Source: Lachnospiraceae bacterium (lineage in GTDB: Bacteria > Bacillota > Clostridia > Lachnospirales > Lachnospiraceae). From it: DNA of 64,000 bases. Positions 11,939-41,597 of this stretch are shown here, one piece after another. The position numbers and the translations under genes were made by a program. The DNA lies in the NCBI GenBank assembly GCA_024690825.1, contig JAILOK010000027.1:15377-79376 (forward strand), given 5' to 3'. How positions within the stretch are numbered: position 1 is the stretch's first letter; every line of letters starts with the position of its first letter. The notes beneath the pieces are model-generated. The model saw only the letters and a program-made list of their open reading frames with translations. It was not told the origin of the DNA and made no database searches.

Positions 11939-11947
11939 CAACTTTCA
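11915..11947. repeat. REP-like repeat, locus 1
   Basis: GTGACAGAGGGACGGTCCCGGTGACAACTTTC. Confidence 0.75.
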
Positions 11948-12147: not shown

Positions 12148-12150
12148 ACT

Positions 12151-13023
12151 TCAGTTTCCGTACAGGATCCTTGCATACTCCGAATCCTTGTCAAGGATCA
12201 GTGTCTTGTCATTTCCGGTCATGGCTTCTAAGGAATCCAGCCCCCTTAGATAGTTATAAAAATCAGCCTTGTCCTCATTCCTGTAAGCGTCCGAAAGGAT
12301 CTTCATATATTCGGCTTCACCTTCGGCCTCAAGCTTTGCGGCCTCTTTTTCCGCATTCGCCTTTGTTATGCTTACCTGCTTGTCGGTCTCATTCATTATC
12401 TTTTTTGCTTCAGCCTGTCCCTTGGCACGATATCCGCTGGCGATATTATTTCTTTCGGATATCATTCTTTCATACACCGCAGCCTTGTTGTCATCGGGCA
12501 GATCCAGCGCCTTTATCTCGGCAAGCTCGATCACTATGCCGTACTGGCTTATATCCGAATTCGACTCATCGGTTATCCTATTTGTCAGCGTATTTCCGCG
12601 GGCTGCGATGATCTCGTCCTGGGTCATCGATGATATGATGTTCTTGGTGGCGTTAAATACCGCCGCGCCTATCCTTTCTTCCGCCCTTCCTCTTATCGCT
12701 CCGAGAGTCTGGTAGTATTTCACCGCATCATTTACCGACCAGATCACATAGTTGTCTGCGATCATGGATTTCTTATCCGATGTGATGACATCGGATACCG
12801 GTATGTCATAGAGCCTGTCCCCGCAGTAAACTGTCGTTATGTCCTCGATGAACGGAGTATGCACATGCAGTCCCGTATTCTTCTGAACCGCCTGTATCTT
12901 TCCAAGCCTTATGAGCAGCGCGGTCTCATTTGTATGAACGGTATAGCAGGATGAAACGATGATAAAAAATGCTATGATCAAAACTGCTATGCCGGCGATC
13001 TTAATAAAACTTTTGTTCTTCAT
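12151..13023 (-). CDS. hflC: FtsH protease modulator HflC (SPFH family)
   Basis: Single N-terminal TM; VITSDKKSMIADNYVIW, AVYERMISERN, AEGEAE, KADFYNYLR; directly follows hflK. Confidence 0.85.
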   Translation of the reverse strand: MKNKSFIKIAGIAVLIIAFFIIVSSCYTVHTNETALLIRLGKIQAVQKNTGLHVHTPFIEDITTVYCGDRLYDIPVSDVITSDKKSMIADNYVIWSVNDAVKYYQTLGAIRGRAEERIGAAVFNATKNIISSMTQDEIIAARGNTLTNRITDESNSDISQYGIVIELAEIKALDLPDDNKAAVYERMISERNNIASGYRAKGQAEAKKIMNETDKQVSITKANAEKEAAKLEAEGEAEYMKILSDAYRNEDKADFYNYLRGLDSLEAMTGNDKTLILDKDSEYARILYGN

Positions 13024-13035
13024 CCCGATACCCTC

Positions 13036-14109
13036 CTATTCTTCCGCATCAACCGAATAATCCGTCGCGTCCACAGATTCTTCCGGAATCTCGTCCTCTT
13101 CGTCCGTATTCCTTCCCTCATCGGTGAAGCTGTCCAAAGGCAGCATGGTCTGGGTCTGTCCGTCAGATATGACCACCTTTATGCCCGGAAGGATCTCTTC
13201 CATCTTTTCATAGAACATCCGGCGTTTCGTAACGGTCGGGTATTTCTGATATTCATTGTAGATCTCGTTAAACCTTGCAACCTGTCCCTCGGCTTCGGCT
13301 ATCCTTGCTTCCTTTGCGGCCGTTGCCTTCTGTATTATGGCATCCGCCTCCGCTTCCGCTTCCGGGATCTTTCTGTTCTTGTAGGCCTGGGCGTTATTCT
13401 TGTCCGTATCCGCTCCCTGCTTTGCGGTCTCTACCTCCTTGAAGGCCGCAACGATCTCGGCTGTCGGAGGTCTCGAATCCTGCACAGTGATATTGAGGAC
13501 CATAAGCCCGATATCGTGCTCGTTAAGTTCCTTCGTGATGGCTTCCTTGATATCGGCCTGTATCTGGCTCTTTCCGGTAGTCATGGCCTCGTCGACGGTA
13601 TAGTTTGATACCACCGTCCTGATGTTTGACTGCGCGATGTTGGCAAGTATCGTTTCGGGGCTTTCGGTATTATAGGTATAGGCAACCGGATCGGACACCC
13701 TGTACTCAAGATAAAAATCAATATTGAGCAGGTTGAAATCCGAGGTGATCATGATCCCGCTGGCCTCATCCACAGGATACTGCCCTTTTTGCGCATCCTC
13801 ATCTATCACATAGCCTATCGCGGTTCCGTGGGTCGTCATATCGACCATCCTCACGCTCTGCCACGGAGCCTTGAAATAAAAACCTGCGGTATTTACCTGG
13901 ATCACTCTGCCAAACTGAGTCAGAATCGCGTTCTCCTGCTCGTTTACCGCGTAAAAGCACCGTAGCAGCACTGATACGGCAATGATCGCTATGATCACAA
14001 AGGAGACCACTCCCCGTATCTTTTTGAAAGCTTCTCCCGGATCGGTATAGGTCCCGCCTTCATTGACTATGTCCGGTTTTTTCTTATAAAAGGTGAAATT
14101 CGGTTTCAT
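13036..14109 (-). CDS. hflK: FtsH protease modulator HflK (SPFH family)
   Basis: MITSDFNL, YRVSDP, QDSRPP, AFKEVETAK, AEGQVARF, YQKYPTVTKRRMFYE. Confidence 0.88.
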   Translation of the reverse strand: MKPNFTFYKKKPDIVNEGGTYTDPGEAFKKIRGVVSFVIIAIIAVSVLLRCFYAVNEQENAILTQFGRVIQVNTAGFYFKAPWQSVRMVDMTTHGTAIGYVIDEDAQKGQYPVDEASGIMITSDFNLLNIDFYLEYRVSDPVAYTYNTESPETILANIAQSNIRTVVSNYTVDEAMTTGKSQIQADIKEAITKELNEHDIGLMVLNITVQDSRPPTAEIVAAFKEVETAKQGADTDKNNAQAYKNRKIPEAEAEADAIIQKATAAKEARIAEAEGQVARFNEIYNEYQKYPTVTKRRMFYEKMEEILPGIKVVISDGQTQTMLPLDSFTDEGRNTDEEDEIPEESVDATDYSVDAEE

Positions 14110-26814: not shown

Positions 26815-29800
26815 CTACTCAGCCTGAGCCACATCAAACTTTCTTTTTATCTTACCGGTAAACCGTGTTCCGGTTCCGACGATCGTAACTGTTCCCTTCT
26901 TCGGACCTACCTGCTTGAAGGTTCCCCACACCACATAGTAGTCGCCTGCTTCATTGCCGGATACATCCTTCGGCTTCAGGACCTCCTTCGTCTCTTTGTC
27001 AGCCCTTGTCCATACCACCTTTATCATGCTGTCATCATACTGCCCGTCAGGTCTGTAGGGCACGGGCTGTTCAATGCCGTCTTCCTCATTGACAAACACC
27101 TCGACCGGCGTTTTGTCCTTATTATACTCCTGTACGCCTATGGTATATGTCAGATCATATCTGCCGTAATATTTTCCGGTGCCTTCAACCCTGATCCTGT
27201 ACCTGCCGGCCCTGTTGTTTGAGAGCGCGGAGCCGTCGATCCTGTAGCCCTCTTCCGCAAGCGTCGAAAGATCATCTATCGTTGTTTCATTCTGATAGAT
27301 ATAAAGCCTGATGCCTTCCGTGCCTTTATTTTCGATCCGGTTTGAAAGCTTAAGCGTCAGATCGGTGTATTCATCCCCGCTTGAGAAATTGAAACTCTTT
27401 TTCTTCAGCGTGATGTCATCACACTTAAGCTTCGTGCCGCCGTAGGTCACCTTTACATATGCAGGCTCGAACACATAGTATTTCATCTTCAGACTTTCAT
27501 CCGAAAACTGCACTTTCAGATAATAAATACCAGAGTTCAGCGCTTCCGGGGTAAGCTCGCTCTTCGCATATACTTTCGCGGTGCATTCGTCCTTCCCGTC
27601 TACGAGATCAACGCTGATCGAACCACCGCTGCCGTCCTTATCCACATCCTGATAGGTGTATTTCTTCTCCGAAGTCTTTGCATAGAACTTATCCGGATCA
27701 AGGAATGCGGCGATCCCGGCTTCCTCTTCCGACATGGGATAAACGACCTTTTTATAGGTTCCTCCGACAGTCATCTTTTTCGAGGTCTTCGGAATTCCAT
27801 AGAAGAATATGCCTTCGCTTTCTCCTTCTCCCTCGTATTTGAAAGGATCCTGGGTCCTGCCGCTGATATTGGGATTGCTGCCGTTTGATGTCAGCACGAC
27901 CGTATACCTGCTGAAGGAATCCGTGGTCTTAAACTTCTTTGCCGTTACATCCTTTCCGTCCTCGTCATAGATCGATATATCATAGGCGGATGAAGGTATG
28001 GTCTTTCCGGCATTCACGCCGCTTAAATAGCTTGCCTTAACCTTGGGCTTTAAGACCTTTCCGTTATATTTGATATACTGCGTTGTCACGGCAACATCCG
28101 CCGCGTAGGCAAGGTCTGCGGGAAGTATCACAAAGTATACCTTGATCTTCATTTCGGAATAAATACCCTTGCCGGTAACGATGACGGTCGGTCTGTTTTC
28201 ACTGTCCATGTTGCCTGCGTTCTTATTATTTTTGTAGGTAAGGGTATAATCGGTACCGAAGGAAAGCCTGTTGCCGCCGTCCTCAACGCGGATGTCTAGG
28301 GTGGGACTGTAGCCGCTCTTGGGGAGTCCCTTTGAGTAATACCTGGTGTCGTCCTTTGCCACATATTTGTTGCCGTTATAGACAACGGGCATTAAAGCCT
28401 TCACTGTAAGGCTGGCATTGTTATCGCTTGCGCTGACTTCCTCTGTAAATATCTCAAACAGCGTATATTTTGCTCCGTCTTTTTTGATCTTTTCCACAAA
28501 AGTTTGTCTGTCAAAGGTAAATTTTGTTCCCTTTTCATCCCTTGTGGGCTCGCTGTAGATACCGATATCGGCAGCGTTCATCATTTCTTCTTTATAGCAC
28601 TGTTCAAGCTGGTCATACACGACCTGTTTGACACACCAGACCGCGCCCTTTGTTGACTGCTTGTTCGAGAAGCTGTATATGGTAAGGGGAGTCGTATCCT
28701 CCGCCCTTCTTATCTTCGTCGGAGCGATCTCCTTTTCCATTGAAGGATCCCTGAATTCAAGGATGAGCGAGGGTTCCACATTGTAGGTGACCCAGGGCTT
28801 CTCCATGAGTTCATAGTTGCTTTCCTTATCATCATTGGGATCTGACTTAAGTTTTCCCAGATCCTTAAGCTGCGCTTTGTAGCCGGAATATTTTCTTGCA
28901 TTGGATATGCCGGTAAGGTCAATGACGGAGGATGAGGAATCAAACCAGTCCTGGATCGGAACATTTTCTCCCGACACAACCGTCACTTTGCTCATCTTTC
29001 CGCTCTCATCTGCCCTGTATACGCTTATAAGCCCGTAATATCTTTCCGTCAGTTCATCTCCGACAAGTGAACTTACGGCCTTGGATGCGGTAACATATAC
29101 AGGCATGCGCAGAATGGCAAAATCCGTCGAAGCGTTCTTTTCAAGGCAGTCAACGCTTACCGAAATCTCAGTTCCCGCGCTCATCTTTGAGCAGTCAAAC
29201 GAATCTGACGGAGTGTTTGCGCCGTTCCAGTAGAAAAGTGCGCCGGAAGACTTTGTCAGTTCCTTCTTTGTGCTTCCGTGTATGAAATACAATGTGAAAT
29301 AATCATAAACATTGTCTATCTTATCCGAATAAAAGACATCCTTTTTCTGTACCAAAGACAGGCTGTCCTTTTCCTTTATCTCCTCCACGGTATACCTAAG
29401 GAGCTGGGTTATTGATACGACTGAAGCATTCAGGATCCTGTAACGCCCTGTTTTATCCACTCCGTTCACGCTGATGTTAAATCCTGTATCCGTCTTTGCA
29501 GCTATATAATAAGTACCTGCATCGTTACAGGACAGATTGACATCAACGGGCTTCTCATTCTGTCCCGCGTCATTAGTGCTCACATAGGCAGTTCCGGTCA
29601 CGACGGCATCGGTGATCTCGTTTCCGTTCTTATCAAAAAGCGCGGTCGTCAATCCGGCCTGCTTTAAGCTCTGTCCCTTCAATACCATTCCAAGGGCAAG
29701 CGCAGGGCGTATATAGGCATCCTCCTGCTCATGGATCTCATAATATGTGCCGTTTTTTTCCGCATAATAACCGTCTTTAATGCAGTTCATATCCGGTTTT

Positions 29801-31350
29801 GTATTAAAAGATCCTCCGGTAATGTTGACATTATCCTTTATGACACCGGTATCATAGGCTGCGCTTACCGCCATTGCCTGTCCGTTTTTATTATTGGGAA
29901 CCGAGGTGAACTTTCCTCCGCTGATGTCGACCTTCATATGGGTCCTCTGCAGCGCAGGATCCGTACTTCTGTGATTCACATATAACCCAAACAGGCCGGA
30001 AAAGGTTCCTCCCTTTATGGTCAGGCTGCTGTGCTCCGTTTCATATGATGTGTGCTGGGTATAGGGAGAGTAACCGATGCCGCATCCGACAGTCGTGGAA
30101 CCGTTTGCGATATAGCTCAGATTCAGATTGTCTATAAAGGTGTTGTCCGATATGCATGACACCACTGCGTTCTCGATCACTGTGATACCGTTGCTGACCT
30201 CGATACCCGTAGATCCGGTAAAGTTACCGCCGTTTATCGTAAGATTTCCGAAACCCGCATGATAGATCGCAGTTCCTTCATTATCCAAGGCCTTGAAGGT
30301 TCCGCCGTTTATGGTAAATTTTGTTCCGAAAGACCAGGGCTCGCCGTAGTTCTGGAAACATGTACTCCTTGTAGTTATATTTACGGTGTCATCTTCGACT
30401 ATTACCTCGGCTCCGTTTCCTATGGCATACATTCCCATGTAACCGTCGGTTATCTTAAGTCCCGATCTGATTACAGCCTTTGAATTGTAAGGCTCCTTGA
30501 CATCAAATTTTTTTCCGGAAGGGACAGCTGCGACATTTCCGACGACCATTATGGCCTTGCCGCACGCCTCAAGGGCAGATTTATGCTCATCGCAGTCGAT
30601 ATAGGCCGCTATCGAGATCTTTTCCGCGGTAAGCTCAGCCTTGTCCCAGACTGCTACGACAGAATCCGAGGCTTCCGTATTGTTTACGATCGAACCGGGG
30701 GTTTCCGATGAATCGGTGAGGGTAAGCTTCGTCCCCTCTCCGTGAGCAGAGATCAGAAACTCGTTTTCCATATTTTTGGATCCGCCCATATTGATGGCCG
30801 TATTAAGGGCTGTAATTGCCTCTCCCGTACCGCCTATGCCATGACCGTTAAGATCTATCATGATATTTTTCCCGCCGTCTATGTCCACAGCCGTGCCGGT
30901 AAGGGTTATATCTCCCGTCAGAGTGATCTTTGCAGCCGCAGATGCGGGAGCTGCTGCAACAGCGCTCATAAGGGCAGCTGCCGAAGATACCGTAACCTCG
31001 GCTCCTGCTGCTTCTTCCGGTGCAGTTTCTCCCTCTTCTTCAACAGGAAGCGTCTCGTCTTCCGAAACACTCTCGCCGGGTTCATTATCCGATGCAGAGG
31101 ATTCGGGCTGTTTTTCTTCCGGGATCACGGGAGCAGTCTCGTCTCCGGAAGGAGTTGTCTCATCTTCCGGTCTTGTTTCATCCGGCGCCTCAGTGCTCGG
31201 CTCGGATACGGCAGGCATCTCTATACCCGCTCCCGCTCCCGGCATCACCGGCGTATCTTTTACCTCATCCGCATAAACGCTGCAGGTCATTGACATGACC
31301 ATTGCAATGATGAGCAGTATCGACAGCTGTTTCCTGAACCTTTTCCTCAT
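26815..31350 (-). CDS. 1511-aa secreted/surface protein: signal peptide, acidic P/E-rich linker, beta-helix-like region, Ig-like repeats
   Basis: MRKRFRKQLSILLIIAMVMSMTCSVYADE signal; repeated xITGGxF strands; repeats such as DYTLTYKNNKNAG...VTGKGIY, VEGTGKYYG and TIVGTGTRFTG. Confidence 0.8.
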   Translation of the reverse strand: MRKRFRKQLSILLIIAMVMSMTCSVYADEVKDTPVMPGAGAGIEMPAVSEPSTEAPDETRPEDETTPSGDETAPVIPEEKQPESSASDNEPGESVSEDETLPVEEEGETAPEEAAGAEVTVSSAAALMSAVAAAPASAAAKITLTGDITLTGTAVDIDGGKNIMIDLNGHGIGGTGEAITALNTAINMGGSKNMENEFLISAHGEGTKLTLTDSSETPGSIVNNTEASDSVVAVWDKAELTAEKISIAAYIDCDEHKSALEACGKAIMVVGNVAAVPSGKKFDVKEPYNSKAVIRSGLKITDGYMGMYAIGNGAEVIVEDDTVNITTRSTCFQNYGEPWSFGTKFTINGGTFKALDNEGTAIYHAGFGNLTINGGNFTGSTGIEVSNGITVIENAVVSCISDNTFIDNLNLSYIANGSTTVGCGIGYSPYTQHTSYETEHSSLTIKGGTFSGLFGLYVNHRSTDPALQRTHMKVDISGGKFTSVPNNKNGQAMAVSAAYDTGVIKDNVNITGGSFNTKPDMNCIKDGYYAEKNGTYYEIHEQEDAYIRPALALGMVLKGQSLKQAGLTTALFDKNGNEITDAVVTGTAYVSTNDAGQNEKPVDVNLSCNDAGTYYIAAKTDTGFNISVNGVDKTGRYRILNASVVSITQLLRYTVEEIKEKDSLSLVQKKDVFYSDKIDNVYDYFTLYFIHGSTKKELTKSSGALFYWNGANTPSDSFDCSKMSAGTEISVSVDCLEKNASTDFAILRMPVYVTASKAVSSLVGDELTERYYGLISVYRADESGKMSKVTVVSGENVPIQDWFDSSSSVIDLTGISNARKYSGYKAQLKDLGKLKSDPNDDKESNYELMEKPWVTYNVEPSLILEFRDPSMEKEIAPTKIRRAEDTTPLTIYSFSNKQSTKGAVWCVKQVVYDQLEQCYKEEMMNAADIGIYSEPTRDEKGTKFTFDRQTFVEKIKKDGAKYTLFEIFTEEVSASDNNASLTVKALMPVVYNGNKYVAKDDTRYYSKGLPKSGYSPTLDIRVEDGGNRLSFGTDYTLTYKNNKNAGNMDSENRPTVIVTGKGIYSEMKIKVYFVILPADLAYAADVAVTTQYIKYNGKVLKPKVKASYLSGVNAGKTIPSSAYDISIYDEDGKDVTAKKFKTTDSFSRYTVVLTSNGSNPNISGRTQDPFKYEGEGESEGIFFYGIPKTSKKMTVGGTYKKVVYPMSEEEAGIAAFLDPDKFYAKTSEKKYTYQDVDKDGSGGSISVDLVDGKDECTAKVYAKSELTPEALNSGIYYLKVQFSDESLKMKYYVFEPAYVKVTYGGTKLKCDDITLKKKSFNFSSGDEYTDLTLKLSNRIENKGTEGIRLYIYQNETTIDDLSTLAEEGYRIDGSALSNNRAGRYRIRVEGTGKYYGRYDLTYTIGVQEYNKDKTPVEVFVNEEDGIEQPVPYRPDGQYDDSMIKVVWTRADKETKEVLKPKDVSGNEAGDYYVVWGTFKQVGPKKGTVTIVGTGTRFTGKIKRKFDVAQAE

Positions 31351-31438: not shown

Positions 31439-31497
31439 AAAGGCGGGGCGAAAACACCCCACCTTTGATACTACTCCAGGTAAACTCTTTATGTCAA
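31439..31497 (-). promoter_or_regulatory. Promoter and leader hairpin of the large surface protein gene
   Basis: TTGACA(31497-92)-N18-TAGTAT(31473-68), immediately followed by AAAGGTGGGG/CCCCGCCTTT (31466-31439) and ACCTGTTTTT. Confidence 0.55.
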
Positions 31498-31525: not shown

Positions 31526-34174
31526 TCACTGCATATCTGTTCCCAGCTGCAGGCATTCCCAGTTTGCGGGATCAAAGATATTGTCATGCACGGAAAGCCA
31601 CGATATCATCTCATCGTCATAGACCGTATCTTTTTCGGTATCCACCTCAATCTTCGTTCTGACGATAACAAGCGGTCCCTCGCTCTTTCTGTCGTTATTG
31701 ACGGGATTTCCCGTAAAGGGATTGACCGGATCTTTTATTACATCCTTCATGGCTATAGTCGGCACATCGGCGTTGCACATAAATGTGTCATCCGTGACGA
31801 CTCCCTCGTGATCCGAATCGAAATCCTTTACCAGAAGCACGGGGTTGACGGCCTCGACATCGATCGGTATATCTTCAAAATACATATAAGGGAACTGACC
31901 CATTCCGAAACCGTGGTCGGCCGTGATGATTATTCTGGTATTATCGTAAACGCCCAAATCTCTTAAGGTATCCAGCCAGTCACCAAGCTTCATCATGGCG
32001 GCCATGTCCGCGTCATAGTGCTCCTCCTGGATCGTATGGGTTATCTTCATCGTCTTCCCGTCTGGAAGCGTGCGCTTTTCGGGAGTTTCCGCAAGCCTTA
32101 CCGTCGAATCGGGCTCATAATCCGGAGGATTGAGCGAAGTGTTTTCGTGCGCCGCATCATTTTCGATCATAATAAGCTCGCCCTTGCTGTCATCCGAAAC
32201 CTCAGTAAGCTCGGGCATCAGGCGCAGGAATGACAGACAGGTGATGAAACGGTACTTCAGGCCGTTATTTGTGATCGAAAGATAATTGCCCTCATCATAA
32301 AGTGTCTCCTGCGTGAAAAGAGGCATAGAACGGAAGAGGCTGTAGAAAAAGAAGTTCCTCTTCTGCTGCTCGAGTTCTATGCATGCCCTCTCCTTTTCGG
32401 TGAGATAATCATTGTATTCACCGTTTGATGTGCGGTAGGCATCGCAGTCGGGGACATTGTCAAATATGCGCGATCCGTTTATGAAGGAATTTTCAAGGTC
32501 CGCAAGCGGCAGGTCGCATACCGTGGAATGATACCCTTCTTTTCCAAATAATAAAGGCATGAGCTTTAAGGCTTCGTTCTGCTTGTCCTTTAAGAGCACA
32601 TCATCTCTTTTATTGGATTCGGCCAGCGCATACTCATATCCGCCAAATAGCGCGGCAGACGCATTTATTGTTTCCGTCCCCGTGGAGACCGTATTGGGAT
32701 AAAATGTAAATCCCTCAAACTTCTTTTCAAGCTCCGGTTTTTCCTGGAAAAGATACGGAATATAAGCCCCTATGGACCGGTCAAGCATGATGACCACCAC
32801 ATTTTTTCCCTTTGAGGAAAACTTAAGGATCTTATTATTTATATCCGCAGGCTCGACTCCGGCCGCCTTGCCGTTTTTGGCGTTTGCAAAGATATGCGAG
32901 GACCTGACGGTCTTTTCGATCGAGACCGCATTATATACGGAAAAGATCATCTCGCAGACGATCAGGATGCCCAGAAGGCTGAATACATATTTCTTTCCCT
33001 TTTTGAAAAAGGCCGTCAGTACAACAGCCGTGGTAGCGATGAACAGTACATTGAAGATCCTGTTCACATATCCGTAGGAAGGATATCTGTCGTAGATGAG
33101 CGTATAGGAAATGATCCCGAACTGCCCGGAAAAAAACATGTGGTTGATGATGAACACAACCGAGCAGCACAGAGCCGCAAGGCTTATAAACTTCCTCAAA
33201 CGGGGCCCCGAAAGGAAGAAAATGACCGCGCCCCACAAAATAAAGACGCCCGATGCTATGGCAAAGGAAAGAAGCGCATATCTTACCGGATCCGGATAGA
33301 TCAGGTTTTCCGCAAAATCAAGGGGCGAAGCATCAATGACCGACAGCGGTATGGCAAGACCCGTAAAAAGCGAAAGCAGCACCGCCGAGAGTGCCCAGAG
33401 CTTTGTGACATCGCTGTCCTTTTTGGGGGAGCCGGAAACGCTTCTTTGAACGGCTTCAGCCTCAGACGGCAGATCATCTCCCGCCTCCTTCGTCTGTTTC
33501 TTTTTGTTGATCATATCCATGACAATGTTCTTTCCGAGGGAAAAAACATTATTGAGCGTCCAGTAAAATACAAGTCCCGCAGGCGATCTGTATAGCAGCA
33601 CCAGAAATACCAGGGCAAAAGCCACGGTCTGGATCTTTTCCTTCTTTGTTCCGCCTTTCGTATAGATGGCCGCGGAAGTCAGATTGATCGCCGTCATAAG
33701 GATGGGAAGCAGGTTAATGTGCAGGCCTCCTATGGGGATCAGTCCGTCGGGACTTCCCAGATCCTGTATCATCAGGAAGGATGCGCCCTTTAACAGCGTG
33801 AGATTTGAAAGAAAATCATAGGCCGCGATAAAGAAAGGAACCTGCAGAAGCAGGGAAAGTGAGCTCTTTAACACATACCAGGGCTGGTAATCATTCTGCC
33901 TGTAGTATTCGGACAGGATCATGAACCGCTCATCGCCCTTAAAGGTGCGCCGTATCTCCTTAACCCAGTGCTCCATGTCCTTCTGCTTTTTGCGCTCCTC
34001 TGCCTGCATCGCATCGGACCGAAGATACATCGGCAGAACCAGGATATTCATCACAAGACTTACCGAGAGAATGGATATCCCGGGGTTCGTGAAAAGATGA
34101 TAGCTGACCCTGAAGATGATCTCAAAGAGAAACCATATCGGTTTTATTGCAAGATAATATAAGAATTCGCCCAT
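31526..34174 (-). CDS. Fusion: YidC/Oxa1-like domain, additional TM bundle, alkaline-phosphatase/sulfatase-superfamily domain
   Basis: About aa 1-220 YidC-like (ILVLP, LLLQVPFF, LPILM, PAGLVFYWTLNNVFS). C-terminal NVVVIMLDR, YPNTVSTGTET, NTRIIITADHG and NADVP are LtaS/EptA/sulfatase-like. Confidence 0.85.
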   Translation of the reverse strand: MGEFLYYLAIKPIWFLFEIIFRVSYHLFTNPGISILSVSLVMNILVLPMYLRSDAMQAEERKKQKDMEHWVKEIRRTFKGDERFMILSEYYRQNDYQPWYVLKSSLSLLLQVPFFIAAYDFLSNLTLLKGASFLMIQDLGSPDGLIPIGGLHINLLPILMTAINLTSAAIYTKGGTKKEKIQTVAFALVFLVLLYRSPAGLVFYWTLNNVFSLGKNIVMDMINKKKQTKEAGDDLPSEAEAVQRSVSGSPKKDSDVTKLWALSAVLLSLFTGLAIPLSVIDASPLDFAENLIYPDPVRYALLSFAIASGVFILWGAVIFFLSGPRLRKFISLAALCCSVVFIINHMFFSGQFGIISYTLIYDRYPSYGYVNRIFNVLFIATTAVVLTAFFKKGKKYVFSLLGILIVCEMIFSVYNAVSIEKTVRSSHIFANAKNGKAAGVEPADINNKILKFSSKGKNVVVIMLDRSIGAYIPYLFQEKPELEKKFEGFTFYPNTVSTGTETINASAALFGGYEYALAESNKRDDVLLKDKQNEALKLMPLLFGKEGYHSTVCDLPLADLENSFINGSRIFDNVPDCDAYRTSNGEYNDYLTEKERACIELEQQKRNFFFYSLFRSMPLFTQETLYDEGNYLSITNNGLKYRFITCLSFLRLMPELTEVSDDSKGELIMIENDAAHENTSLNPPDYEPDSTVRLAETPEKRTLPDGKTMKITHTIQEEHYDADMAAMMKLGDWLDTLRDLGVYDNTRIIITADHGFGMGQFPYMYFEDIPIDVEAVNPVLLVKDFDSDHEGVVTDDTFMCNADVPTIAMKDVIKDPVNPFTGNPVNNDRKSEGPLVIVRTKIEVDTEKDTVYDDEMISWLSVHDNIFDPANWECLQLGTDMQ

Positions 34175-34189
34175 TGATGACCGTCCTTA

Positions 34190-35701
34190 TTAGTTAACAT
34201 AAAATAATACAAATTCTTTCAGGACCGTCACGCCCCATCCCTGATTTGTGAATGCGTCTACAAGGTCGGGACGCTCGTATTGGTCTACGGCATATATGTG
34301 ATCGGGAGAATAATCGATATCTCCTTCGGGATTTACTTCGACATTGTTAAAGGAAAAGCTGCTCGCATCTGAAAACTGCCTGTAATCGGCAGGGGATGCC
34401 GCGCCGTAAAGCGCAATCAAAAGATTTCTGCCTTCAAATTCCCCGGTATAGACAGTGACCGTTTTTTCCGGATACATCTTCAATGCGGCCTTGACCGCCT
34501 CTCCCGCGCTCTTGTCGACTATATTTCCGTTTTCGTGGTCGCTGCTGTGATTAAGCTCGGAGTTGTAATTTACCAGATAGTAATGCGTAAGGATGCAAAA
34601 TCCCACGATATATACCAGCACGATGACGGGCAGAGTGCCTTTGACATTATCTCCTATGTAAATGATCCCCTCCATGATGAGCATGGCAAGGGCAAAAAAG
34701 AGACCGCAGGCAGTGCTTAAACCTGCCTTTTTTATGATAAGGCATACCGGAAGGCCCGCGATGACAAAGCACCAGGCCAATACCGAAGCATCAAAGGTTT
34801 TTGTTTTAACAGAGGTCAGGACTTTTTTGAAGGAAACGATGACTCCGGTAACAAGAAGCGGAAGCGAGAACACATACATCGTCCCAAAGTCCGGTATGAC
34901 ATTGAAATCATGTCCGTCATCCCAGAACATCTTCTTAAATCTGGTAAGGTTTTTAAGGATGCCCGCCGGATTCACATCAAGCTTAAGTCCGGATATCACG
35001 ATCAATACGGCGCATATAAGTACGGGTACGCATAATAAAACCGCATCTCGTATCCTGATCTTTTTTACAAAAAAGAGATACGCGCAGACGATCAGCGCAA
35101 ACAAAGGAATAATTATGCAGCCGGGCCTCCAGGTAAGGACTGCCGCCGAAAACAGGATCCCAGATAATAAGAACAGCAGGGCCTTCGACTTTTTTATTGC
35201 CGCAAGCAGAAAGAAAAATGCCGCGGGGAGGATCGAAAGCACCAGGAAATTCTCAAGGAAATTTCTCTGGCTTATGAAAAATATCGGAAGCGACAGAACA
35301 AGTCCCGCCGCAACAAATCCGTCCTTCTTTTTTCCCGTCCACTGCCAGACGAAAAGATAGGAAAAGATCATCGCAAAAAATCCGCCTGCCGCGGAAATGA
35401 GCCTGAAAAGCTTCATCGAAAACAAAGCCGGACGAAGCTTCATCAGAAGCGCCCCGGCCCATATGAAAAGAGGGCTGTGTCCGTCACCGAATCCGCCGAA
35501 AAAAAGAGAAGGCGCAGCCCCTGTGCTGTCAGTCCCGAACCTTGCGATGCAAAGCGATTCATAAGCCTGTTCCAGTTCTTTCGTATGGAGATAATAAGGG
35601 ATCTCTCCTGCCATAAATACCCTGCTGAATAAATAACCGGCCAGGAGTATGAGAAGAAATACCGGATTATATTTTTCGAAGATCTCTCCCGCTTTTTTCA
35701 T
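34190..35701 (-). CDS. GT39/ArnT-like (GT-C) membrane glycosyltransferase
   Basis: First-loop PYYLHTKELEQAYES (degenerate DE motif), GHSPLFIW, about 12 TM segments. Start MKKAGE at 35701 after AAAGGTGG. Confidence 0.65.
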   Translation of the reverse strand: MKKAGEIFEKYNPVFLLILLAGYLFSRVFMAGEIPYYLHTKELEQAYESLCIARFGTDSTGAAPSLFFGGFGDGHSPLFIWAGALLMKLRPALFSMKLFRLISAAGGFFAMIFSYLFVWQWTGKKKDGFVAAGLVLSLPIFFISQRNFLENFLVLSILPAAFFFLLAAIKKSKALLFLLSGILFSAAVLTWRPGCIIIPLFALIVCAYLFFVKKIRIRDAVLLCVPVLICAVLIVISGLKLDVNPAGILKNLTRFKKMFWDDGHDFNVIPDFGTMYVFSLPLLVTGVIVSFKKVLTSVKTKTFDASVLAWCFVIAGLPVCLIIKKAGLSTACGLFFALAMLIMEGIIYIGDNVKGTLPVIVLVYIVGFCILTHYYLVNYNSELNHSSDHENGNIVDKSAGEAVKAALKMYPEKTVTVYTGEFEGRNLLIALYGAASPADYRQFSDASSFSFNNVEVNPEGDIDYSPDHIYAVDQYERPDLVDAFTNQGWGVTVLKEFVLFYVN

Positions 35702-35732
35702 ATTATGTAAACCACCTTTGCATGGATTAATT

Positions 35733-36857
35733 TTATGTAAACTGTTCAAGGTGTCTCATGAAGTTTTCTTTGTTTTCCAGCGCTGTCGTAGTGGGACGCC
35801 CGAGATCCGGTCTTGCTCCGACCTGACATTTAACCTCAATGAACGAAAGCTCTCCGGCATCTTTTGCACTCTTTAATTCACTGTCAAGGCTGTCCATATC
35901 GGACACACTGACCGCCCTTTTATAACCGCAGGCCTTTGCTATCGACACAAGGTCAACGGATCCCGCAACGGTCGGCATGCCTCCCACGGTCTCATGCGCT
36001 CCGTTATTTATCACTATGTGTATGAGATTTGAAGGAGCATTTGTTCCGATGACTGCCATGGCTCCCATATGCATGAGCGCCGCTCCGTCACCGTCTATGC
36101 ACCAGACCCTCACTCCGGGTTTATTAAGCGCAACACCCAAAGCGATCGATGAGCAGTGTCCCATGGAACCCACAGTCAGAAAATCCGTTCCGTGGTCCAT
36201 TCCCTTTTCGGTACGGTATTCAAAAAGCTCACGGCTTATCTTTCCCGTCGTTGAGATGACAGGATCAGAGCCTGTCACGGCTGCTATATGCTTTATGACC
36301 TCTTCGCGGTTGAGGCTGTAGTTATTATCATATTTTACCTTCCCGTCAAAGCTTAAGCCGCCCTCCCGTATAATAAAAGCGGCCTGCTTTCCCTTTGCAA
36401 GCTCTTTTCTGAAGGTTTCCATGGCTTTATTCACTTCCTCATCCGTGGTGTCCTTTCCGATGACGAAGGTCTTCACATCCATATCCTGCATGAGCTTTTC
36501 GGTGACGATGCCCTGGTAGATGTGCTGGGGCTCGTCGTGAATACCCGGTTCGCCTCTCCAGCCTATGATGAATACCACCGGTATGGCATAAACCTTGTCA
36601 TTTACCAGTGAAGCAAGAGGGTTTATTATATTTCCCTCACCGCTGTTCTGCATGTATACCACGGGAACCTTCCCTGTGGCCAGATGATATCCCGCTGCCA
36701 GTGCCAGACAGTTTCCTTCGTTTGCGGCTATGATGTGATGGTTCTTATCTATACCGTATTTATCCATCAGGAAATTGCACAGCGCTTTAAGCCTGCTGTC
36801 GGGAACTCCCGAATAAAATTCCGATCCTATGATTTCAAATAATTTTTCCGTTTTCAT
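35733..36857 (-). CDS. aepY: Phosphonopyruvate decarboxylase
   Basis: YSGVPDS, AANEGN, YMQNSGEGN, DEPQH, VGSMGH, ThDP motif IDGDGAALMHMG...NN. Confidence 0.95.
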   Translation of the reverse strand: MKTEKLFEIIGSEFYSGVPDSRLKALCNFLMDKYGIDKNHHIIAANEGNCLALAAGYHLATGKVPVVYMQNSGEGNIINPLASLVNDKVYAIPVVFIIGWRGEPGIHDEPQHIYQGIVTEKLMQDMDVKTFVIGKDTTDEEVNKAMETFRKELAKGKQAAFIIREGGLSFDGKVKYDNNYSLNREEVIKHIAAVTGSDPVISTTGKISRELFEYRTEKGMDHGTDFLTVGSMGHCSSIALGVALNKPGVRVWCIDGDGAALMHMGAMAVIGTNAPSNLIHIVINNGAHETVGGMPTVAGSVDLVSIAKACGYKRAVSVSDMDSLDSELKSAKDAGELSFIEVKCQVGARPDLGRPTTTALENKENFMRHLEQFT

Positions 36858-36901
36858 ATGTTTTTCCTTCAATATTTGTGAGCCGCTTTACTGTCACCTT
36901 T

Positions 36902-38203
36902 TTATCCCATGGCAGGCTGCGGTGTATCCTCAGAGACTGTATCATCACCGGAGCCCGCAAGTTCATCATGCTTTTTTACAAGATAGTCAACCGTAAGTTT
37001 TGCGGCTTCCCCGGGATTTGACCAGGTTTCGGCGCGGGCCTTGTCACGGCCTGCCGCAAGTGTCTCGTCGTTTACCGTCCTGTCGATCACTTCTTTGATA
37101 TTGTCGAAATCTTCTTCCTTTAACGGGATACCGATCTTGGGCAGGATCCTTAAGGTCCACATATCTTCCTCAAGCCAGGCGGCATCATAGGCCGATTTGT
37201 CAAATTCGATGTCGGCATAGATGAAGGGCCTGTCAAAGATCAGGGCATAATCAAACATGACGCCGGAGAAATCCGTGATCATGATATCGGCGCTCTTTAA
37301 CACATCAAAATTGTCATTATCCCTGTTCCAGTGAAGCTTTTCGCTTTCGGGAAATTTCGCCTGAAGTGAATCCATCATCTCCTTTTCGGATGTAAAGGAT
37401 TGCGGATGAGGGCGGATGATTATATTATATCCTGTTTTGATAAGGGCTTTTATTATCTTCTCGCCGAACCTTTTAAGGATCGCGGTATCGCCCCAGGTAG
37501 GCGCAAGGAGAACTGTCTTTGTGCCGTCTGAAGCATGATCTGACGGTGCTTCGCCTTTTACCGAATCATCATATCTTTTCTTCATGGTATCAAGGTAGGT
37601 GATGCCTGTCATGAAGGTTTCGCGCCTGTTGATGTTTCTTAAGGCCTCGATATCACGGAGCTGCTTTTCCTCATATTCTCCGGAGATCAGCACCGCATCG
37701 TAATGATCGAGTCCGAACATCCTGTAAAAGGTTGTGTCTCCGGGCTGATGAAGGATATGGACATACCAGTTCACATTCTTTGACCTTTTCCACTGAAGCA
37801 CGTCAAGACCCGGAGTCGTGGCCAGCACCACGCCCGCATTCATGATATTGAGTTTTGAAAAGGCCTTGTTGCCCTCCCCGATAAACGATGCCTTAACATG
37901 AGAATACTCCGTCTTCAGGGCAGGATCATCCTCCGACATCGTCCAGTACTCGACATCGATCCCGCGTTTTTCAAATTCATCGCAGACGGGTTTGAAAACA
38001 TTCCAGTATCTTTTGCTGTCGGAAAAGATCACATATGGGATTTTTTCTGTATCGGCTGCCTGCGCCTTGCCTCCCGATAAGACAAATTTCAACTTCAGTT
38101 TGAGCTTCTGAAAAACAAAATACCCGGCAGAAACTGCTCCTATCAGTATGGTAAAGAGCATGCTTCCCGTTCCGGGATCTATGTACAAAAGTATAGGGTT
38201 CAT
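36902..38203 (-). CDS. CDP-glycerol glycerophosphotransferase (TagB/TagF-like) family protein with N-terminal anchor
   Basis: YIDPGTGS N-terminal TM; LLAPTWG, IRPHPQ, DIMITDFSGVMFDYA. Confidence 0.85.
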   Translation of the reverse strand: MNPILLYIDPGTGSMLFTILIGAVSAGYFVFQKLKLKLKFVLSGGKAQAADTEKIPYVIFSDSKRYWNVFKPVCDEFEKRGIDVEYWTMSEDDPALKTEYSHVKASFIGEGNKAFSKLNIMNAGVVLATTPGLDVLQWKRSKNVNWYVHILHQPGDTTFYRMFGLDHYDAVLISGEYEEKQLRDIEALRNINRRETFMTGITYLDTMKKRYDDSVKGEAPSDHASDGTKTVLLAPTWGDTAILKRFGEKIIKALIKTGYNIIIRPHPQSFTSEKEMMDSLQAKFPESEKLHWNRDNDNFDVLKSADIMITDFSGVMFDYALIFDRPFIYADIEFDKSAYDAAWLEEDMWTLRILPKIGIPLKEEDFDNIKEVIDRTVNDETLAAGRDKARAETWSNPGEAAKLTVDYLVKKHDELAGSGDDTVSEDTPQPAMG

Positions 38204-38212
38204 ATGTTCTCC

Positions 38213-38950
38213 TTATTGTATTTGGTTTACATAATTTTCATCAAAGGCTGCCAGTTCTTCGACGCTGTCGATCTCGGTGATCTGGTCATTCTTTACCGGA
38301 TGTATGACGAGTTTAAGCCTGTCAAGATTTTCATTGACCACATCATCCCAGTAGACATCTTCATGTCCGGGCTTTGAATACCTGTCGTCAATGGCATCCG
38401 CAAGGATCACGGAGTCCTCTTCGGTAAAATATGAAATGCCGCACATATTATAGCAGTTATCTCCGACTTTTCCCACCCGGGTGATGAATCCTTTTTCATC
38501 AAGGTCAAATACCCAGTCATCGGAGTGACCCTCTATGAACTTTCCGAAGTAACAGGAATCATTCAGATCCGCAAGAAAGATCGACGGATCTGACACAAAA
38601 AGATCGGCCTCACAGATAAATACACGCTTTCCGCGCAGGATATCCGTGACCGCCTTTATTGACGAGATATTGTTCACTATCTCGTAGTCTTTATTTTTTA
38701 CGAGGGATAAACCCGGATATTTGGATGCAAGATAGGAAAACTGCTCTCCCAGATAACCCGTGACAACATAGATCTCATCTATCCCACGGCCTCTCAGTCC
38801 GTTTATCACGGTCTCTGCCATGGGGATGCCCTTTACCCTGATCAGGGGTTTCGGGGTATTTTCGGTCAGGGGACGCATCCTTGTCCCCATTCCCGCAGCC
38901 ATCAGGACCGCAATTTCCTTATTTTTTATCTGTTCTTCCGCAACGATCAT
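38213..38950 (-). CDS. LicC/PntC-like phosphocholine/phosphonate cytidylyltransferase
   Basis: LMAAGMGTRMRPLTENTPKPL, VVTGYL, NNISS, EADL, ITEIDSVEEL; ATGA overlap with pepM. Confidence 0.88.
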   Translation of the reverse strand: MIVAEEQIKNKEIAVLMAAGMGTRMRPLTENTPKPLIRVKGIPMAETVINGLRGRGIDEIYVVTGYLGEQFSYLASKYPGLSLVKNKDYEIVNNISSIKAVTDILRGKRVFICEADLFVSDPSIFLADLNDSCYFGKFIEGHSDDWVFDLDEKGFITRVGKVGDNCYNMCGISYFTEEDSVILADAIDDRYSKPGHEDVYWDDVVNENLDRLKLVIHPVKNDQITEIDSVEELAAFDENYVNQIQ

Positions 38951-40242
38951 AACTCGTCTATCAGTGTTATTATTTCCTTGAAGGGCATCAGATGCGAATC
39001 CGCTTCCATTGCCCTGTGATTTGTAAGTATCTCTACGGCAGTCTGCTTCATGGCCGGGAATGCCGCCCTCATCAGCTGGTTTGCGTATATAACGATATTT
39101 ACGCCGTGACGGCTCAGTTCTTCTTCCGTTACGCTGTTGAAGGAAGTGGGCACCACAACGATCGGGGTTGTCTTGTCCTTTTCCCTGAACTTATCGCAGA
39201 ATTCAAAGATCTCCGCCGGATCCTTTTTGCGGCTGTGTATCATTATCCCGTCTGCGCCTGCCTCCTTAAAGGCAAAGGCACGCGTCAGGGCATCTTCCAT
39301 GCCGCGTTCCAATATCAGGGATTCGATGCGCGCGATGATCATGAAATCATCCGTAAGCTGCGCCCTCTTTCCTGCGGCTATCTTTGCCGAGAAGTTTTCT
39401 ATGGAATCCTGGGTCTGGACGACCTCGGTACCGAAAAGAGAATTCTTTTTCAGCCCCGTCTTGTCCTCTATGATGACTGCCGAAACACCCATTCTTTCCA
39501 GGGTACGGACATTATATACAAAATGCTCCGTAAGTCCGCCTGTATCACCGTCAAGGATTATGGGCTTTGTGGTCACCTCGAGGATATCGCTGATGGTACG
39601 AAGACGCGAGGTCATATCCACAAGTTCGATGTCAGGCTTTCCCCTGTCGGTGCTGTCGCACAGGGATGAAACCCACATGCCGTCGAACTGGTCGAGCTTC
39701 CCGTCCTTTTCCACTATGGTCTTTTCGGTGATAAGGCCGGTAAGTCCGCTGTGCGCCTCCATGATCTTTACTATGGGACAGATCTCGATGAGCTGTCTTA
39801 AACGCTTCCTTCTGTATTCGGGCATGGCCAGCTTTTCCTTTAACCGCCGGTCGGCCTTGGATACATTTTCATTGTAGGTATAGCCGATCTCTACAAGCTC
39901 TCCGCCGTATTTCTTCAGAGCCTCCAGACAATTCTCCCTCAGCGCCTTCTCCGGCCCGTCCTTCCAGTTATCGCCGTGGATGACTATGTCGGGCTTCAGC
40001 GTACTTATTATGCCGTCATAAGTCATGTCATCCTGAACTACCACCTCGTCGACGCCTTCAAGCGATTTATAGAGCGCTATCCTTTCATCGATCGATATCG
40101 TGGGAAATCTGTTATAGCGTATGAGCGCACTGTCGGACAGCGCCCCGATGGTGACGCTTCCAAGCTTTGCTGCTTCCTTTATTATATTCAGATGACCTTC
40201 ATGAATGATGTCAGTCGTAAAACAGGTGTATACTTTTTTCAA
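38947..40242 (-). CDS. pepM: Phosphoenolpyruvate mutase fused to an N-terminal cytidylyltransferase-like domain
   Basis: TDIIHEGH (HxGH) N-domain; diagnostic EDKTGLKKNS (EDKxxxxxNS); ARIES, DGIMIHS, YANQLMRA. Confidence 0.96.
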   Translation of the reverse strand: MKKVYTCFTTDIIHEGHLNIIKEAAKLGSVTIGALSDSALIRYNRFPTISIDERIALYKSLEGVDEVVVQDDMTYDGIISTLKPDIVIHGDNWKDGPEKALRENCLEALKKYGGELVEIGYTYNENVSKADRRLKEKLAMPEYRRKRLRQLIEICPIVKIMEAHSGLTGLITEKTIVEKDGKLDQFDGMWVSSLCDSTDRGKPDIELVDMTSRLRTISDILEVTTKPIILDGDTGGLTEHFVYNVRTLERMGVSAVIIEDKTGLKKNSLFGTEVVQTQDSIENFSAKIAAGKRAQLTDDFMIIARIESLILERGMEDALTRAFAFKEAGADGIMIHSRKKDPAEIFEFCDKFREKDKTTPIVVVPTSFNSVTEEELSRHGVNIVIYANQLMRAAFPAMKQTAVEILTNHRAMEADSHLMPFKEIITLIDEL

Positions 40243-40267
40243 AACAAAATCTCCTATGGGTGTAAGA

Positions 40268-40330
40268 GTTGTCAGGGGGACGGTTCTGTTGTCAACTTTT
40301 GTGACAGAGGGACGGTTCTGTTGTCATCTC
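40268..40330. repeat. REP-like repeat, locus 5 (two direct half-sites)
   Basis: GTCAGGGGGACGGTTCTGTTGTCAACTTTTGTGACAGAGGGACGGTTCTGTTGTCATC between the AEP transaminase and pepM. Confidence 0.85.
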
Positions 40331-40338
40331 TTACAACT

Positions 40339-41466
40339 TTAATTATATTTCAGCGGTACACTGACGCCCGCATCTTTGAGCGCTTCCTTGAAAACCTTCC
40401 AGAAATCACGGATGTCGCCTTCATCTATTGCTCCAAGAGCGCAGAGCCTGAAGGTTCCCTGTCCCGCTATCTTTCCGGGATAGATGGTAAATCCCCTTTC
40501 ATAGCAGAAGTCATGGACCTTCTCAAAATCCCAGTTCGGATCATCCGGATAGATGAGGGCAGCAACAAGTCCCGACTGGACATCGCGGCTTAAAGCCTCC
40601 TTAAAGCCAAGTTCATCAATGCCCTCCCTTATGGCATTCATGACACGGGTATGTCTCTCCCACTTTGCCTTTTCACCCTCCTCATAATACTCGATCAAAG
40701 CCTGCTTCGCGGCATAGATCGTCTGTACCGGAGGAGTGAAGTGCATCTCGCCGGTCTTTTCAAAATATTCATACTGCATATACAGATTGCAATAATAAGA
40801 GCGTTTAGGGAAATCCTTTGACTTTTCTATGATATCGCGCCTTCCTATGATGTATGAAAGGCCCGTCATGCCCATGATACCCTTCTGCGCCGAAGCCATG
40901 CAGAAATCAATGTTCTCATCATATACATTTATAGGGATCATCGCATAGGCGCTGGTGGTGTCAGTTATAAGAAATGCGCCGTATTTATGTGCCAAGTCGC
41001 CTATCTCCTTAACCGGATTTAAAAGTCCTGTCCCGGTCTCGTGATAGGTGACATATACATATCCTATATCCTTATTTTCTTTCAGTGTTTCTTCTATTTT
41101 CTGAAGATCCGGCTTTTCATCGAGCGGCTGTTTCAATTCAATATGCGGCAGATCATAGTATCTGCACACATCGCAGGCTCTTTCGGAATAAGCTCCGTTG
41201 TTTATGATAAGAGCCTTTTTATCCCTGTCGAGCAGCGAATTCAAGGCAATATCTATGCATATCGTCCCCGAACCGCAGAACAGCACAGCCGTGTATTCCT
41301 TCGTATCCGCATGAACGATGCGTACCAGATCATCTCGCATGGGTGCCATGATACCTGCAAATTCCTTTTCCCTCGGGCAGATATCCGGAACCACCTGGGC
41401 CATCTTGACGGTATCCGTCGTAGTCGACGGACCGGGATTCAGCAGTATATTCCGTTTAATGTCCAT
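40339..41466 (-). CDS. aepZ: 2-aminoethylphosphonate transaminase (AepZ/PhnW family, PLP-dependent)
   Basis: ILLNPGP, YHETGTGLLN, TDTTSAY, SAQKG, FTPPVQ, TIYPGK. Start MDIKR at 41466 after GGAGG. Confidence 0.92.
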   Translation of the reverse strand: MDIKRNILLNPGPSTTTDTVKMAQVVPDICPREKEFAGIMAPMRDDLVRIVHADTKEYTAVLFCGSGTICIDIALNSLLDRDKKALIINNGAYSERACDVCRYYDLPHIELKQPLDEKPDLQKIEETLKENKDIGYVYVTYHETGTGLLNPVKEIGDLAHKYGAFLITDTTSAYAMIPINVYDENIDFCMASAQKGIMGMTGLSYIIGRRDIIEKSKDFPKRSYYCNLYMQYEYFEKTGEMHFTPPVQTIYAAKQALIEYYEEGEKAKWERHTRVMNAIREGIDELGFKEALSRDVQSGLVAALIYPDDPNWDFEKVHDFCYERGFTIYPGKIAGQGTFRLCALGAIDEGDIRDFWKVFKEALKDAGVSVPLKYN

Positions 41467-41522
41467 TTTTTCATATCCTCCTGCACTGCCCATAAGTTTA
41501 CATCAGATACACATGTCATGTC

Positions 41523-41597
41523 AAAAGATGACAGAGGGACGGTTCTGGTGTCAACTTTTGTGTCACCAGAACCGTCCCCCTGTCACCCCTGTCATCT
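41523..41597. repeat. REP-like repeat, locus 6
   Basis: GATGACAGAGGGACGGTTCTGGTG...CACCAGAACCGTCCCCCTGTCA hairpin directly after the htpG stop. Confidence 0.88.

Follow-up and report, generated by a model that had tools for sequence, protein, structure and literature searches.

Gene content of the operon

The 64,000-nucleotide stretch of Lachnospiraceae DNA analyzed in the current study (hereafter, the window; contig JAILOK010000027.1, referred to as contig C46, from a metagenome-assembled genome of 2.95 Mb that is 99.4% complete) carries seven open reading frames (ORFs) arranged head to tail on the minus strand from 41493 to 31526, a unit of approximately 10 kb in which the intergenic spacing ranges from a 4-bp overlap up to 96 bp (Table 1). 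The genes encode a transaminase, a cytidylyltransferase fused to a phosphoenolpyruvate (PEP) mutase, a LicC/PntC-like nucleotidyltransferase, a TagF-like protein, a phosphonopyruvate decarboxylase (Ppd), a probable GT-C membrane glycosyltransferase and a protein joining a YidC-like domain to an LtaS/EptA-type enzyme. Considered as a whole, they are best explained as one operon of a rumen Lachnospiraceae that decorates its envelope with 2-aminoethylphosphonate (AEP), a reading that we regard as likely, if some way from secure. The half of the operon dedicated to synthesis and activation is of a known type and follows the 'Pnt' scheme set out by Rice et al. (2019; PMC6697681), and the half dedicated to transfer appears to be an undescribed variant with a reach beyond phosphonates.

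The initial annotation of this region as seven tightly spaced genes on the same strand was borne out by the ORF map and by the Pfam and NCBIfam matches, and so was its upper coordinate, 41466, where an in-frame ATG is preceded by a GGAGGA box 9 nt upstream and the transaminase likely starts. The same gene set recurs together in many other genomes, which indicates that the arrangement is not due to chance, and the nearest public relatives of the window genes were found in rumen and gut Lachnospiraceae, pointing to a Gram-positive rumen anaerobe as the host.

Table 1. Features of the AEP operon and of its boundaries, listed in the direction of transcription (TPP, thiamine pyrophosphate).
Feature	Position in the window	Strand	Remarks
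Long hairpin, ~21-bp stem	about 41530-41584		Between the htpG stop codon (15 nt away) and the operon promoter
Promoter-like site	41495..41524	-	TTGACA, 18 nt, TAAACT; predicted, consensus match only
AEP:pyruvate transaminase, biosynthetic AepZ type	40339..41466 (ORF 40339-41493)	-	TIGR03301 PhnW-AepZ, 438 bits (cut-off 361)
Fom1-like cytidylyltransferase-PEP mutase fusion	38947..40242	-	PF01467 at residues 11-103; PF13714 at residues 150-406
LicC/PntC-like nucleotidyltransferase, candidate CTP:AEP cytidylyltransferase	38213..38950	-	PF12804 and PF00483; overlaps the mutase gene by 4 bp
TagF-like protein, candidate CMP-AEP-dependent phosphonyl transferase, 433 residues	36902..38203	-	PF04464, E = 1.4e-17
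Phosphonopyruvate decarboxylase, TPP enzyme	35733..36872	-	TIGR03297, 458 bits (cut-off 313)
Probable GT-C membrane glycosyltransferase, ArnT/PMT_2 type	34190..35701 (ORF to TTG 35749)	-	Likely start at Met17
YidC-like + LtaS/EptA-type fusion	31526..34174	-	PF02096, 78 bits (cut-off 35); PF00884, 37.8 bits, above cut-off
Terminator-like hairpin	31439..31466	-	12-bp stem with 7 G-C pairs, T run; 60 nt past the last gene

Synthesis of AEP

The PEP mutase, Ppd and the AepZ-type transaminase all exceeded the NCBI equivalog cut-offs, the mutase scoring 413 bits for TIGR02320 (cut-off 320), and these three matches bear out the earlier proposal that the enzymes together yield AEP. The mutase occupies residues 145-431 of its protein, behind a cytidylyltransferase domain (residues 1-135) with the motif HEGH, and carries the sequence EDKTGLKKNS, which matches the diagnostic EDKxxxxxNS. 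According to these family assignments, the mutase would convert PEP into phosphonopyruvate with formation of the C-P bond, Ppd would convert phosphonopyruvate into phosphonoacetaldehyde, pulling the mutase reaction forward, and the transaminase would convert phosphonoacetaldehyde into AEP.

A soluble phosphonate related to fosfomycin would be consistent with the Fom1-like domain carried by the mutase, and degradation of AEP with the fact that AEP transaminases also occur in catabolism. However, the operon contains no alcohol dehydrogenase, no Fom2/3/4-type genes and no export pump, the transaminase fits the AepZ model and scores below the cut-off of the degradative PhnW model (TIGR02326), and three of the seven proteins are membrane transferases. 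Moreover, the phosphonatase PhnX was not found in this nearly complete genome, which makes a catabolic role unlikely. The fosfomycin-like antibiotic was thus rejected for want of the downstream genes in the operon, and AEP catabolism because of the missing PhnX and the model fitted by the transaminase; between them, the two possibilities retain a very slight probability. Besides, four loci encoding a cytidylyltransferase-mutase fusion (L054, L057, L059, and L061, at ~11300-14000 in each) are devoid of the transaminase, and in them the mutase gene is immediately followed by genes for a metallophosphoesterase and a DUF6564 protein; the phosphonate made from these loci is probably another one.

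Probable activation of AEP by cytidylyltransferases

The LicC/PntC-like enzyme encoded after the mutase is probably a cytidine triphosphate (CTP):AEP cytidylyltransferase, with a small residual chance that its substrate is another, and would convert CTP and AEP into the cytidine monophosphate (CMP) derivative CMP-AEP, as PntC enzymes do. This assignment, made on sequence grounds, relies on the residue Glu114, on the constant linkage to the PEP mutase and on the presence of a separate Lic locus with its own LicC. Glu114 aligns with E104 of Tde-PntC (6pd1) and with D105 of LicC from Streptococcus pneumoniae (1jyk), and in our alignment 59 of the 60 LicC-like proteins encoded at mutase loci likewise have Glu here, the residue being Ser, Asp or Pro in seven of the nine LicC-like proteins from choline/ethanolamine kinase loci. 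A second position (E196/D192) was dropped as a PntC signature because it fails to separate mutase-linked from kinase-linked enzymes. The Lic locus, located on contig C88 (L096:1380-14966), is complete, comprising a choline kinase (LicA), a LicC-like nucleotidyltransferase, a BCCT transporter and LicD, and its LicC-like protein is 34% identical to the window enzyme and has Asp at the key position. Altogether, the activation of AEP to CMP-AEP put forward in the initial annotation is supported, albeit not proven, by these three lines of evidence. In the same region of contig C88, the Lic locus is followed by genes for WbsX and for GT2, GT61 and GT10 glycosyltransferases, as well as by another YidC-sulfatase paralogue.

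It could be argued that the LicC-like enzyme is a true phosphocholine cytidylyltransferase and that the fused Fom1-like domain activates AEP, in which case two head groups would be installed. The full-length match of the window enzyme to LicC (E = 3.6e-34) compared with that to Tde-PntC (E = 6e-15), together with the retained aromatic box and the Asp equivalent to D192, agree with such a scheme; moreover, the fused domain belongs to PF01467, a family that includes ethanolamine-phosphate cytidylyltransferase, and AEP is the C-P analogue of phosphoethanolamine. Nonetheless, the operon has neither a choline kinase nor a choline transporter, the Lic locus described above supplies a LicC of its own, and Glu114 is nearly universal among the mutase-linked homologues. 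In addition, it has been demonstrated that separate LicC-like PntC enzymes prefer AEP over phosphocholine, and that Ari-PntC does so despite being LicC-like and having an aromatic box (Rice et al., 2019). We therefore consider the installation of two head groups decidedly improbable, and retain the CTP:AEP cytidylyltransferase as the probable identity of the LicC-like enzyme.

The domain fused to the mutase matched the cytidylyltransferase domain of Fom1 (PDB 5x3d) with E = 4.7e-31, and it may also make CMP-AEP or may activate another phosphonate. Two cytidylyltransferase domains are indeed present, as previously noted for this locus, but the pattern is not new: a fused nucleotidyltransferase is carried by approximately 60% of PEP mutases, and one of PF01467 by 23.6%, and in Olsenella uli, Atopobium rimae and Treponema denticola the clusters combine a fused nucleotidyltransferase with a separate one (Rice et al., 2019).

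The TagF-like protein as candidate phosphonyl transferase

The protein encoded between the LicC-like enzyme and Ppd scored 64.2 bits for PF04464 (cut-off 22.1), and the top fold match of its structural model (predicted local distance difference test score of 83) was TagF (Foldseek, 3l7j, E = 1e-13). His266 aligns with the catalytic H584 of TagF, and H152, D311 and S313 are invariant in the subfamily alignment, His152 being the likely equivalent of TagF H444. A single N-terminal membrane helix (window 38108-38203) carries the motif YIDPGTGSMLF, and this motif is nearly invariant across three phyla at the start of the helix. Such conservation is too high for a plain anchor, and the motif may contact a YidC-like partner or a lipid acceptor.

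The distribution of the TagF-like gene was surveyed in 80 related PEP mutase loci in addition to the window (81 in total). It was present in 20 of the 81 loci and LicD in 12, the two being found together in none, and in seven Lachnospiraceae (L042, L044, L045, L074, L076, L081, and L084) the TagF-like gene is flanked by those of the transaminase and the mutase. LicD is absent from the operon of the window, the only PF04991 match of the genome being located on contig C88. This distribution, along with the position amid the AEP core genes, marks out the TagF-like protein as the leading candidate for a CMP-AEP-using enzyme, and the context argues for CMP-AEP rather than cytidine diphosphate (CDP)-glycerol as its donor. 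The tailoring of an envelope component, as suggested in the initial annotation, is a proposal that was strengthened by the gene order of the seven relatives and by the lack of co-occurrence with LicD in these 81 loci. A strict mutual exclusivity of TagF-like and LicD genes was dropped as a general rule, given that one locus of a later set (L149) has both.

In the proposed mechanism, the membrane-anchored TagF-like enzyme would replace LicD, and the gene context suggests that it would take the aminoethylphosphonyl group of CMP-AEP and attach it, at the cytoplasmic face, to an acceptor hydroxyl bound to the membrane. AEP has no hydroxyl to extend, so the TagF-like enzyme would here perform a single transfer and not act as a polymerase. 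On a quick tree of the family, the mutase-linked TagF-like proteins required at least four label changes, and the window protein fell inside a well-supported clade of 15 mutase-linked Lachnospiraceae sequences. A tagF homologue of Erysipelothrix rhusiopathiae is tied to virulence and may be tied to capsule phosphocholine; reviews report the attenuation of a tagF mutant and, independently of it, a capsule modified with phosphocholine. Erysipelothrix was absent among the best 80 loci ranked on an Erysipelotrichaceae TagF-like protein.

The fusion of a YidC-like domain and an LtaS/EptA-type transferase

The last gene of the operon was initially described as a YidC-sulfatase fusion, and both domains do exceed their Pfam cut-offs; the description was incomplete, however, as the 'sulfatase' part is a full LtaS/EptA-type membrane transferase. 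In the structural model, the YidC-like domain (residues 1-230) is followed by a charged cytoplasmic linker, five transmembrane helices (~254-425) and a domain with the alkaline phosphatase fold (~450-882), and the fold matches include PbgA, LtaP/LtaS, EptA and MCR-1. The predicted topology would place the catalytic domain outside the cell. Across 17 family members, the residues D465, T502, H676, D753 and H754 do not vary; they were matched to the metal ligands and the Thr nucleophile of LtaS/EptA by motif only. The YidC-like domain scored 83.5 bits for TIGR03592, just below the cut-off of 84.3, and the Arg of the YidC groove (R366 in Escherichia coli) is replaced by Asn43 in a column that holds N, Q or C in all 17 members.

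The genome holds five such fusions, a separate housekeeping YidC (contig C78) and two ordinary LtaS-like genes. The fusion family comprises at least 3,256 clusters annotated as 'YidC insertase', and this plain label is misleading for thousands of proteins.

LtaS, EptA and GacH move phospholipid head groups, and LtaS-type enzymes normally use phospholipid donors. The context suggests that the fusion protein would handle the intermediate made by the TagF-like enzyme on the outer face of the membrane, most likely handing the group over to its final acceptor in the envelope by way of a phosphonyl intermediate bound to Thr, and its YidC-like domain could provide a route across the membrane or a dock for the TagF-like helix.

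The GT-C protein

The remaining transferase scored 25.6 bits for PMT_2 (PF13231), just below the cut-off of 26.1. In the Atlas it clusters with ArnT/PMT_2 proteins (score of 0.99), with a structural TM-score of 0.78, and the corresponding record begins at residue 17. The GT-C gene follows Ppd in five related loci. The encoded enzyme probably acts outside the membrane, where it would provide or modify the sugar of the acceptor.

The TagF-like/fusion pair as a probable generic module

A search with the TagF-like subfamily, limited to one genome per species, returned 80 loci, and several of the loci in which the genes were not adjacent are cut by contig ends. In 53 of 71 loci, the fusion gene and the TagF-like gene were immediate neighbors on one strand, in either order and at most 100 bp apart, and the adjacent pairs span Bacillota, Actinomycetota and Spirochaetota. 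A PEP mutase was present in only eight of the 80 loci. The recurring neighbors were a LicC-like nucleotidyltransferase (19 loci), a choline/ethanolamine kinase (15 loci) and an EamA transporter (seven loci), and a nucleotidyltransferase fused to a 6oux-like phospho-amino-acid decarboxylase occurred near the pair in six to eight loci. In some operons (L148 and L153), the pair is accompanied only by a kinase and a nucleotidyltransferase.

The window's own genome contains a second module of this kind on the minus strand of contig C60 (L095:7695-12769), composed of an S-adenosylmethionine-dependent methyltransferase, a 136-residue PF01467 cytidylyltransferase, a TagF-like protein (52% identical to that of the window) and a fusion protein (35% identical). 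It may install a methylated group of the phosphoethanolamine type, and it adjoins GT2 genes and an epimerase.

The several label changes on the tree and the mixed neighbors indicate a generic module, recruited to AEP synthesis on several occasions. The pair is not specific to phosphonates: it also stands beside choline/ethanolamine kinase and LicC-like genes or decarboxylase-nucleotidyltransferase fusions, and we read it as a generic installer of aminoethyl-type phospho- or phosphonate head groups that is fed here with CMP-AEP. In other bacteria, the pair would be fed by choline/ethanolamine kinases and LicC-like enzymes or by the phospho-amino-acid decarboxylase-nucleotidyltransferase fusion. 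In our literature searches, neither TagF-like enzymes nor YidC-sulfatase fusions were connected with phosphonates in any paper found.

In one locus (L102:6186-7991) and in seven similar ones, a nucleotidyltransferase fused to a threonine/serine-phosphate decarboxylase-like domain (6oux, E = 1e-44) is encoded directly upstream of the pair. Such a fusion might open a route to CDP-ethanolamine or CDP-aminopropanol that needs no kinase.

A proposed relay across the membrane and the competing explanations

The transfer half of the operon can be interpreted in more than one way. A relay is favoured here, in which a membrane carrier would be loaded by the TagF-like enzyme and unloaded by the LtaS-like domain, which would hand the group to the final acceptor via a Thr intermediate, because a cytoplasmic CDP-donor enzyme is tightly paired with an outward-facing phosphotransferase, sometimes as the sole transferases of the operon. 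Formulated in full as a two-step transmembrane relay, the TagF-like enzyme would load AEP, phosphoethanolamine or phosphocholine, a repurposed YidC-like domain would pass the head group or dock the YIDPGTGSMLF helix, and the LtaS-like domain would deliver the group to the wall or to lipoteichoic acid; in this detailed form it is a tentative proposal, possible rather than probable. We infer both the nature of the acceptor and the sequence in which the two transfers would take place.

In the main competing explanation, the TagF-like enzyme would need no partner to load AEP, in the cytoplasm, onto the repeat unit of a lipid-linked glycan, exactly in the manner of LicD. The fusion protein would then have a different task, either polymerizing or ligating the glycopolymer or, in the way of LtaS and GacH, adding glycerol-phosphate taken from phosphatidylglycerol. 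The usual phospholipid donors of LtaS-type enzymes are in agreement with this division of labor, and so are the nine TagF-like mutase loci without a nearby fusion gene and the three of five fusion paralogues in the genome that are not beside a TagF-like gene. On the other hand, the direct adjacency of the two genes in most of the surveyed loci, across three phyla and in either order, would not be anticipated, and the four-gene operons of kinase, nucleotidyltransferase, TagF-like gene and fusion are hard to explain unless both transferases act on the same head group. We consider this explanation unlikely, although it deserves more weight than the remaining ones.

Alternatively, the end product could be a membrane phosphonolipid, formed by a TagF-like enzyme that loads AEP on diacylglycerol or on a glycolipid. 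The operon contains no glycan polymerase or flippase of the Wzx/Wzy type, and sulfatase-rich clusters of Selenomonas were earlier classed as phosphonolipid clusters (Li and Horsman, 2022), which would be compatible with a lipid product. Nevertheless, no CDP-alcohol phosphatidyltransferase is encoded in the operon, and both the GT-C protein and the LtaS/EptA-type transferase are predicted to face outward, pointing to an extracytoplasmic acceptor, so that a phosphonolipid seems improbable to us.

Some observations weigh against the decoration of the envelope with AEP through these enzymes. The LicC-like enzyme is nearer in sequence to LicC than to Tde-PntC, its aromatic box (Trp, Tyr) is kept, and the second discriminating position is Asp, as in D192 of LicC. 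Furthermore, locus L149 carries both a TagF-like and a LicD-like gene, a YidC-sulfatase gene is missing within 10 kb in nine of the 20 mutase loci with a TagF-like gene, meaning that co-action in cis is not required, and the related loci are phylogenetically dependent and do not represent independent samples.

Boundaries and neighborhood of the operon

The -10-like hexamer of the predicted promoter ends at 41495, two bases ahead of the first ATG in the transaminase ORF, and the long hairpin upstream of it may also act as the htpG terminator. At the opposite end, a second promoter-like sequence (TTGACA-18-TAGTAT, at 31468-31497) lies directly upstream of the terminator hairpin and ahead of a gene for a protein of 1511 amino acids, which could be due to chance or to a leader arrangement. 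This gene (26815-31350, minus strand), located directly beyond the operon terminator, encodes a secreted protein with a signal peptide and an acidic stretch rich in Pro and Glu, for which there were zero Pfam matches. A homologue with 45% identity follows the same operon in locus L011, and partial paralogues are found on contigs C22, C5 and C65.

The L011 operon (L011:8857-18953) is a close relative of that of the window, with a mutase that is 92% identical, the same htpG flank and the same seven genes. Its fusion gene stands before Ppd and the GT-C gene, not after them as in the window, as a result of a recent rearrangement inside the operon.

Significance for the rumen microbiome

AEP was first found in the rumen, and phosphatase-resistant zwitterionic groups on the cell surface affect host recognition, phage adsorption and phosphorus cycling in this environment. 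The steps of surface phosphonate assembly that follow CMP-AEP are an acknowledged gap, and the operon and its relatives supply concrete candidate enzymes for them; indeed, the later Pnt steps were termed 'enigmatic' by Rice et al. (2019). The same enzyme pair is also found in phosphocholine/phosphoethanolamine-type operons of many gut and rumen bacteria. If the relay holds true, it would represent a LicD-independent decoration of the envelope with zwitterionic groups in many gut Bacillota, Actinomycetota and Spirochaetota, and a YidC fold with a non-insertase role. Cultured carriers from the Hungate collection (XPB1003, AB2028, NK4A179, XBD2001, and C. aminophilum) make the hypothesis directly testable.

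Comparison with known systems

The mutase of the window resembles Fom1 of Streptomyces wedmorensis (5x3d) in domain order, in the match of the N-terminal domain and in the HxGH motif. Nonetheless, Fom1 activates 2-hydroxyethylphosphonate toward an antibiotic, whereas the operon described here has no dehydrogenase for that substrate and no Fom2/3/4-type genes. The operon also resembles the Pnt clusters of O. uli, A. rimae and T. denticola, which share the PEP mutase-nucleotidyltransferase fusion, Ppd and the AEP transaminase, a separate LicC-like PntC encoded one or two genes away from the mutase, and CMP-AEP as the donor for a cell-surface target. The differences lie in the transfer genes, given that the Pnt clusters carry LicD-like phosphotransferases or glycosyltransferases, while the window operon has the TagF-like protein, the YidC-LtaS-like fusion and the GT-C protein, without LicD; in addition, PntC of T. 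denticola is fused to the transaminase, and the PntC-like enzyme of the window is unfused.

The Lic pathway of S. pneumoniae (LicA, LicB, LicC, and LicD1/2) follows the same general logic, in which a zwitterionic head group is made or imported, activated with CTP by an enzyme of the LicC fold and moved to an envelope polymer. However, the predicted head group of the window operon contains a C-P bond and would be built de novo starting with PEP, and the candidate transferase has the TagF fold, not the LicD fold. Compared to TagF, TarF, TarL and the TagF-like capsule polymerases (3l7i, 8va1, and 8qoy), the TagF-like protein shares the fold, a His aligned with the catalytic H584 and the D-x-S-S nucleotide motif, but it is only ~17% identical and has a single N-terminal transmembrane helix with the nearly invariant YIDPGTGSMLF.

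Finally, the fusion protein agrees with LtaS, GacH, EptA/MCR-1 and PbgA in the architecture and fold of residues 254-882, by motif in the Asp/Thr/His/Asp-His set, and in the predicted outward orientation of the catalytic domain. It differs from these enzymes in the YidC-like domain without the groove Arg that stands in front, and in the pairing of its gene with that of a cytoplasmic CDP-donor transferase, which suggests a dedicated donor over bulk phospholipid.

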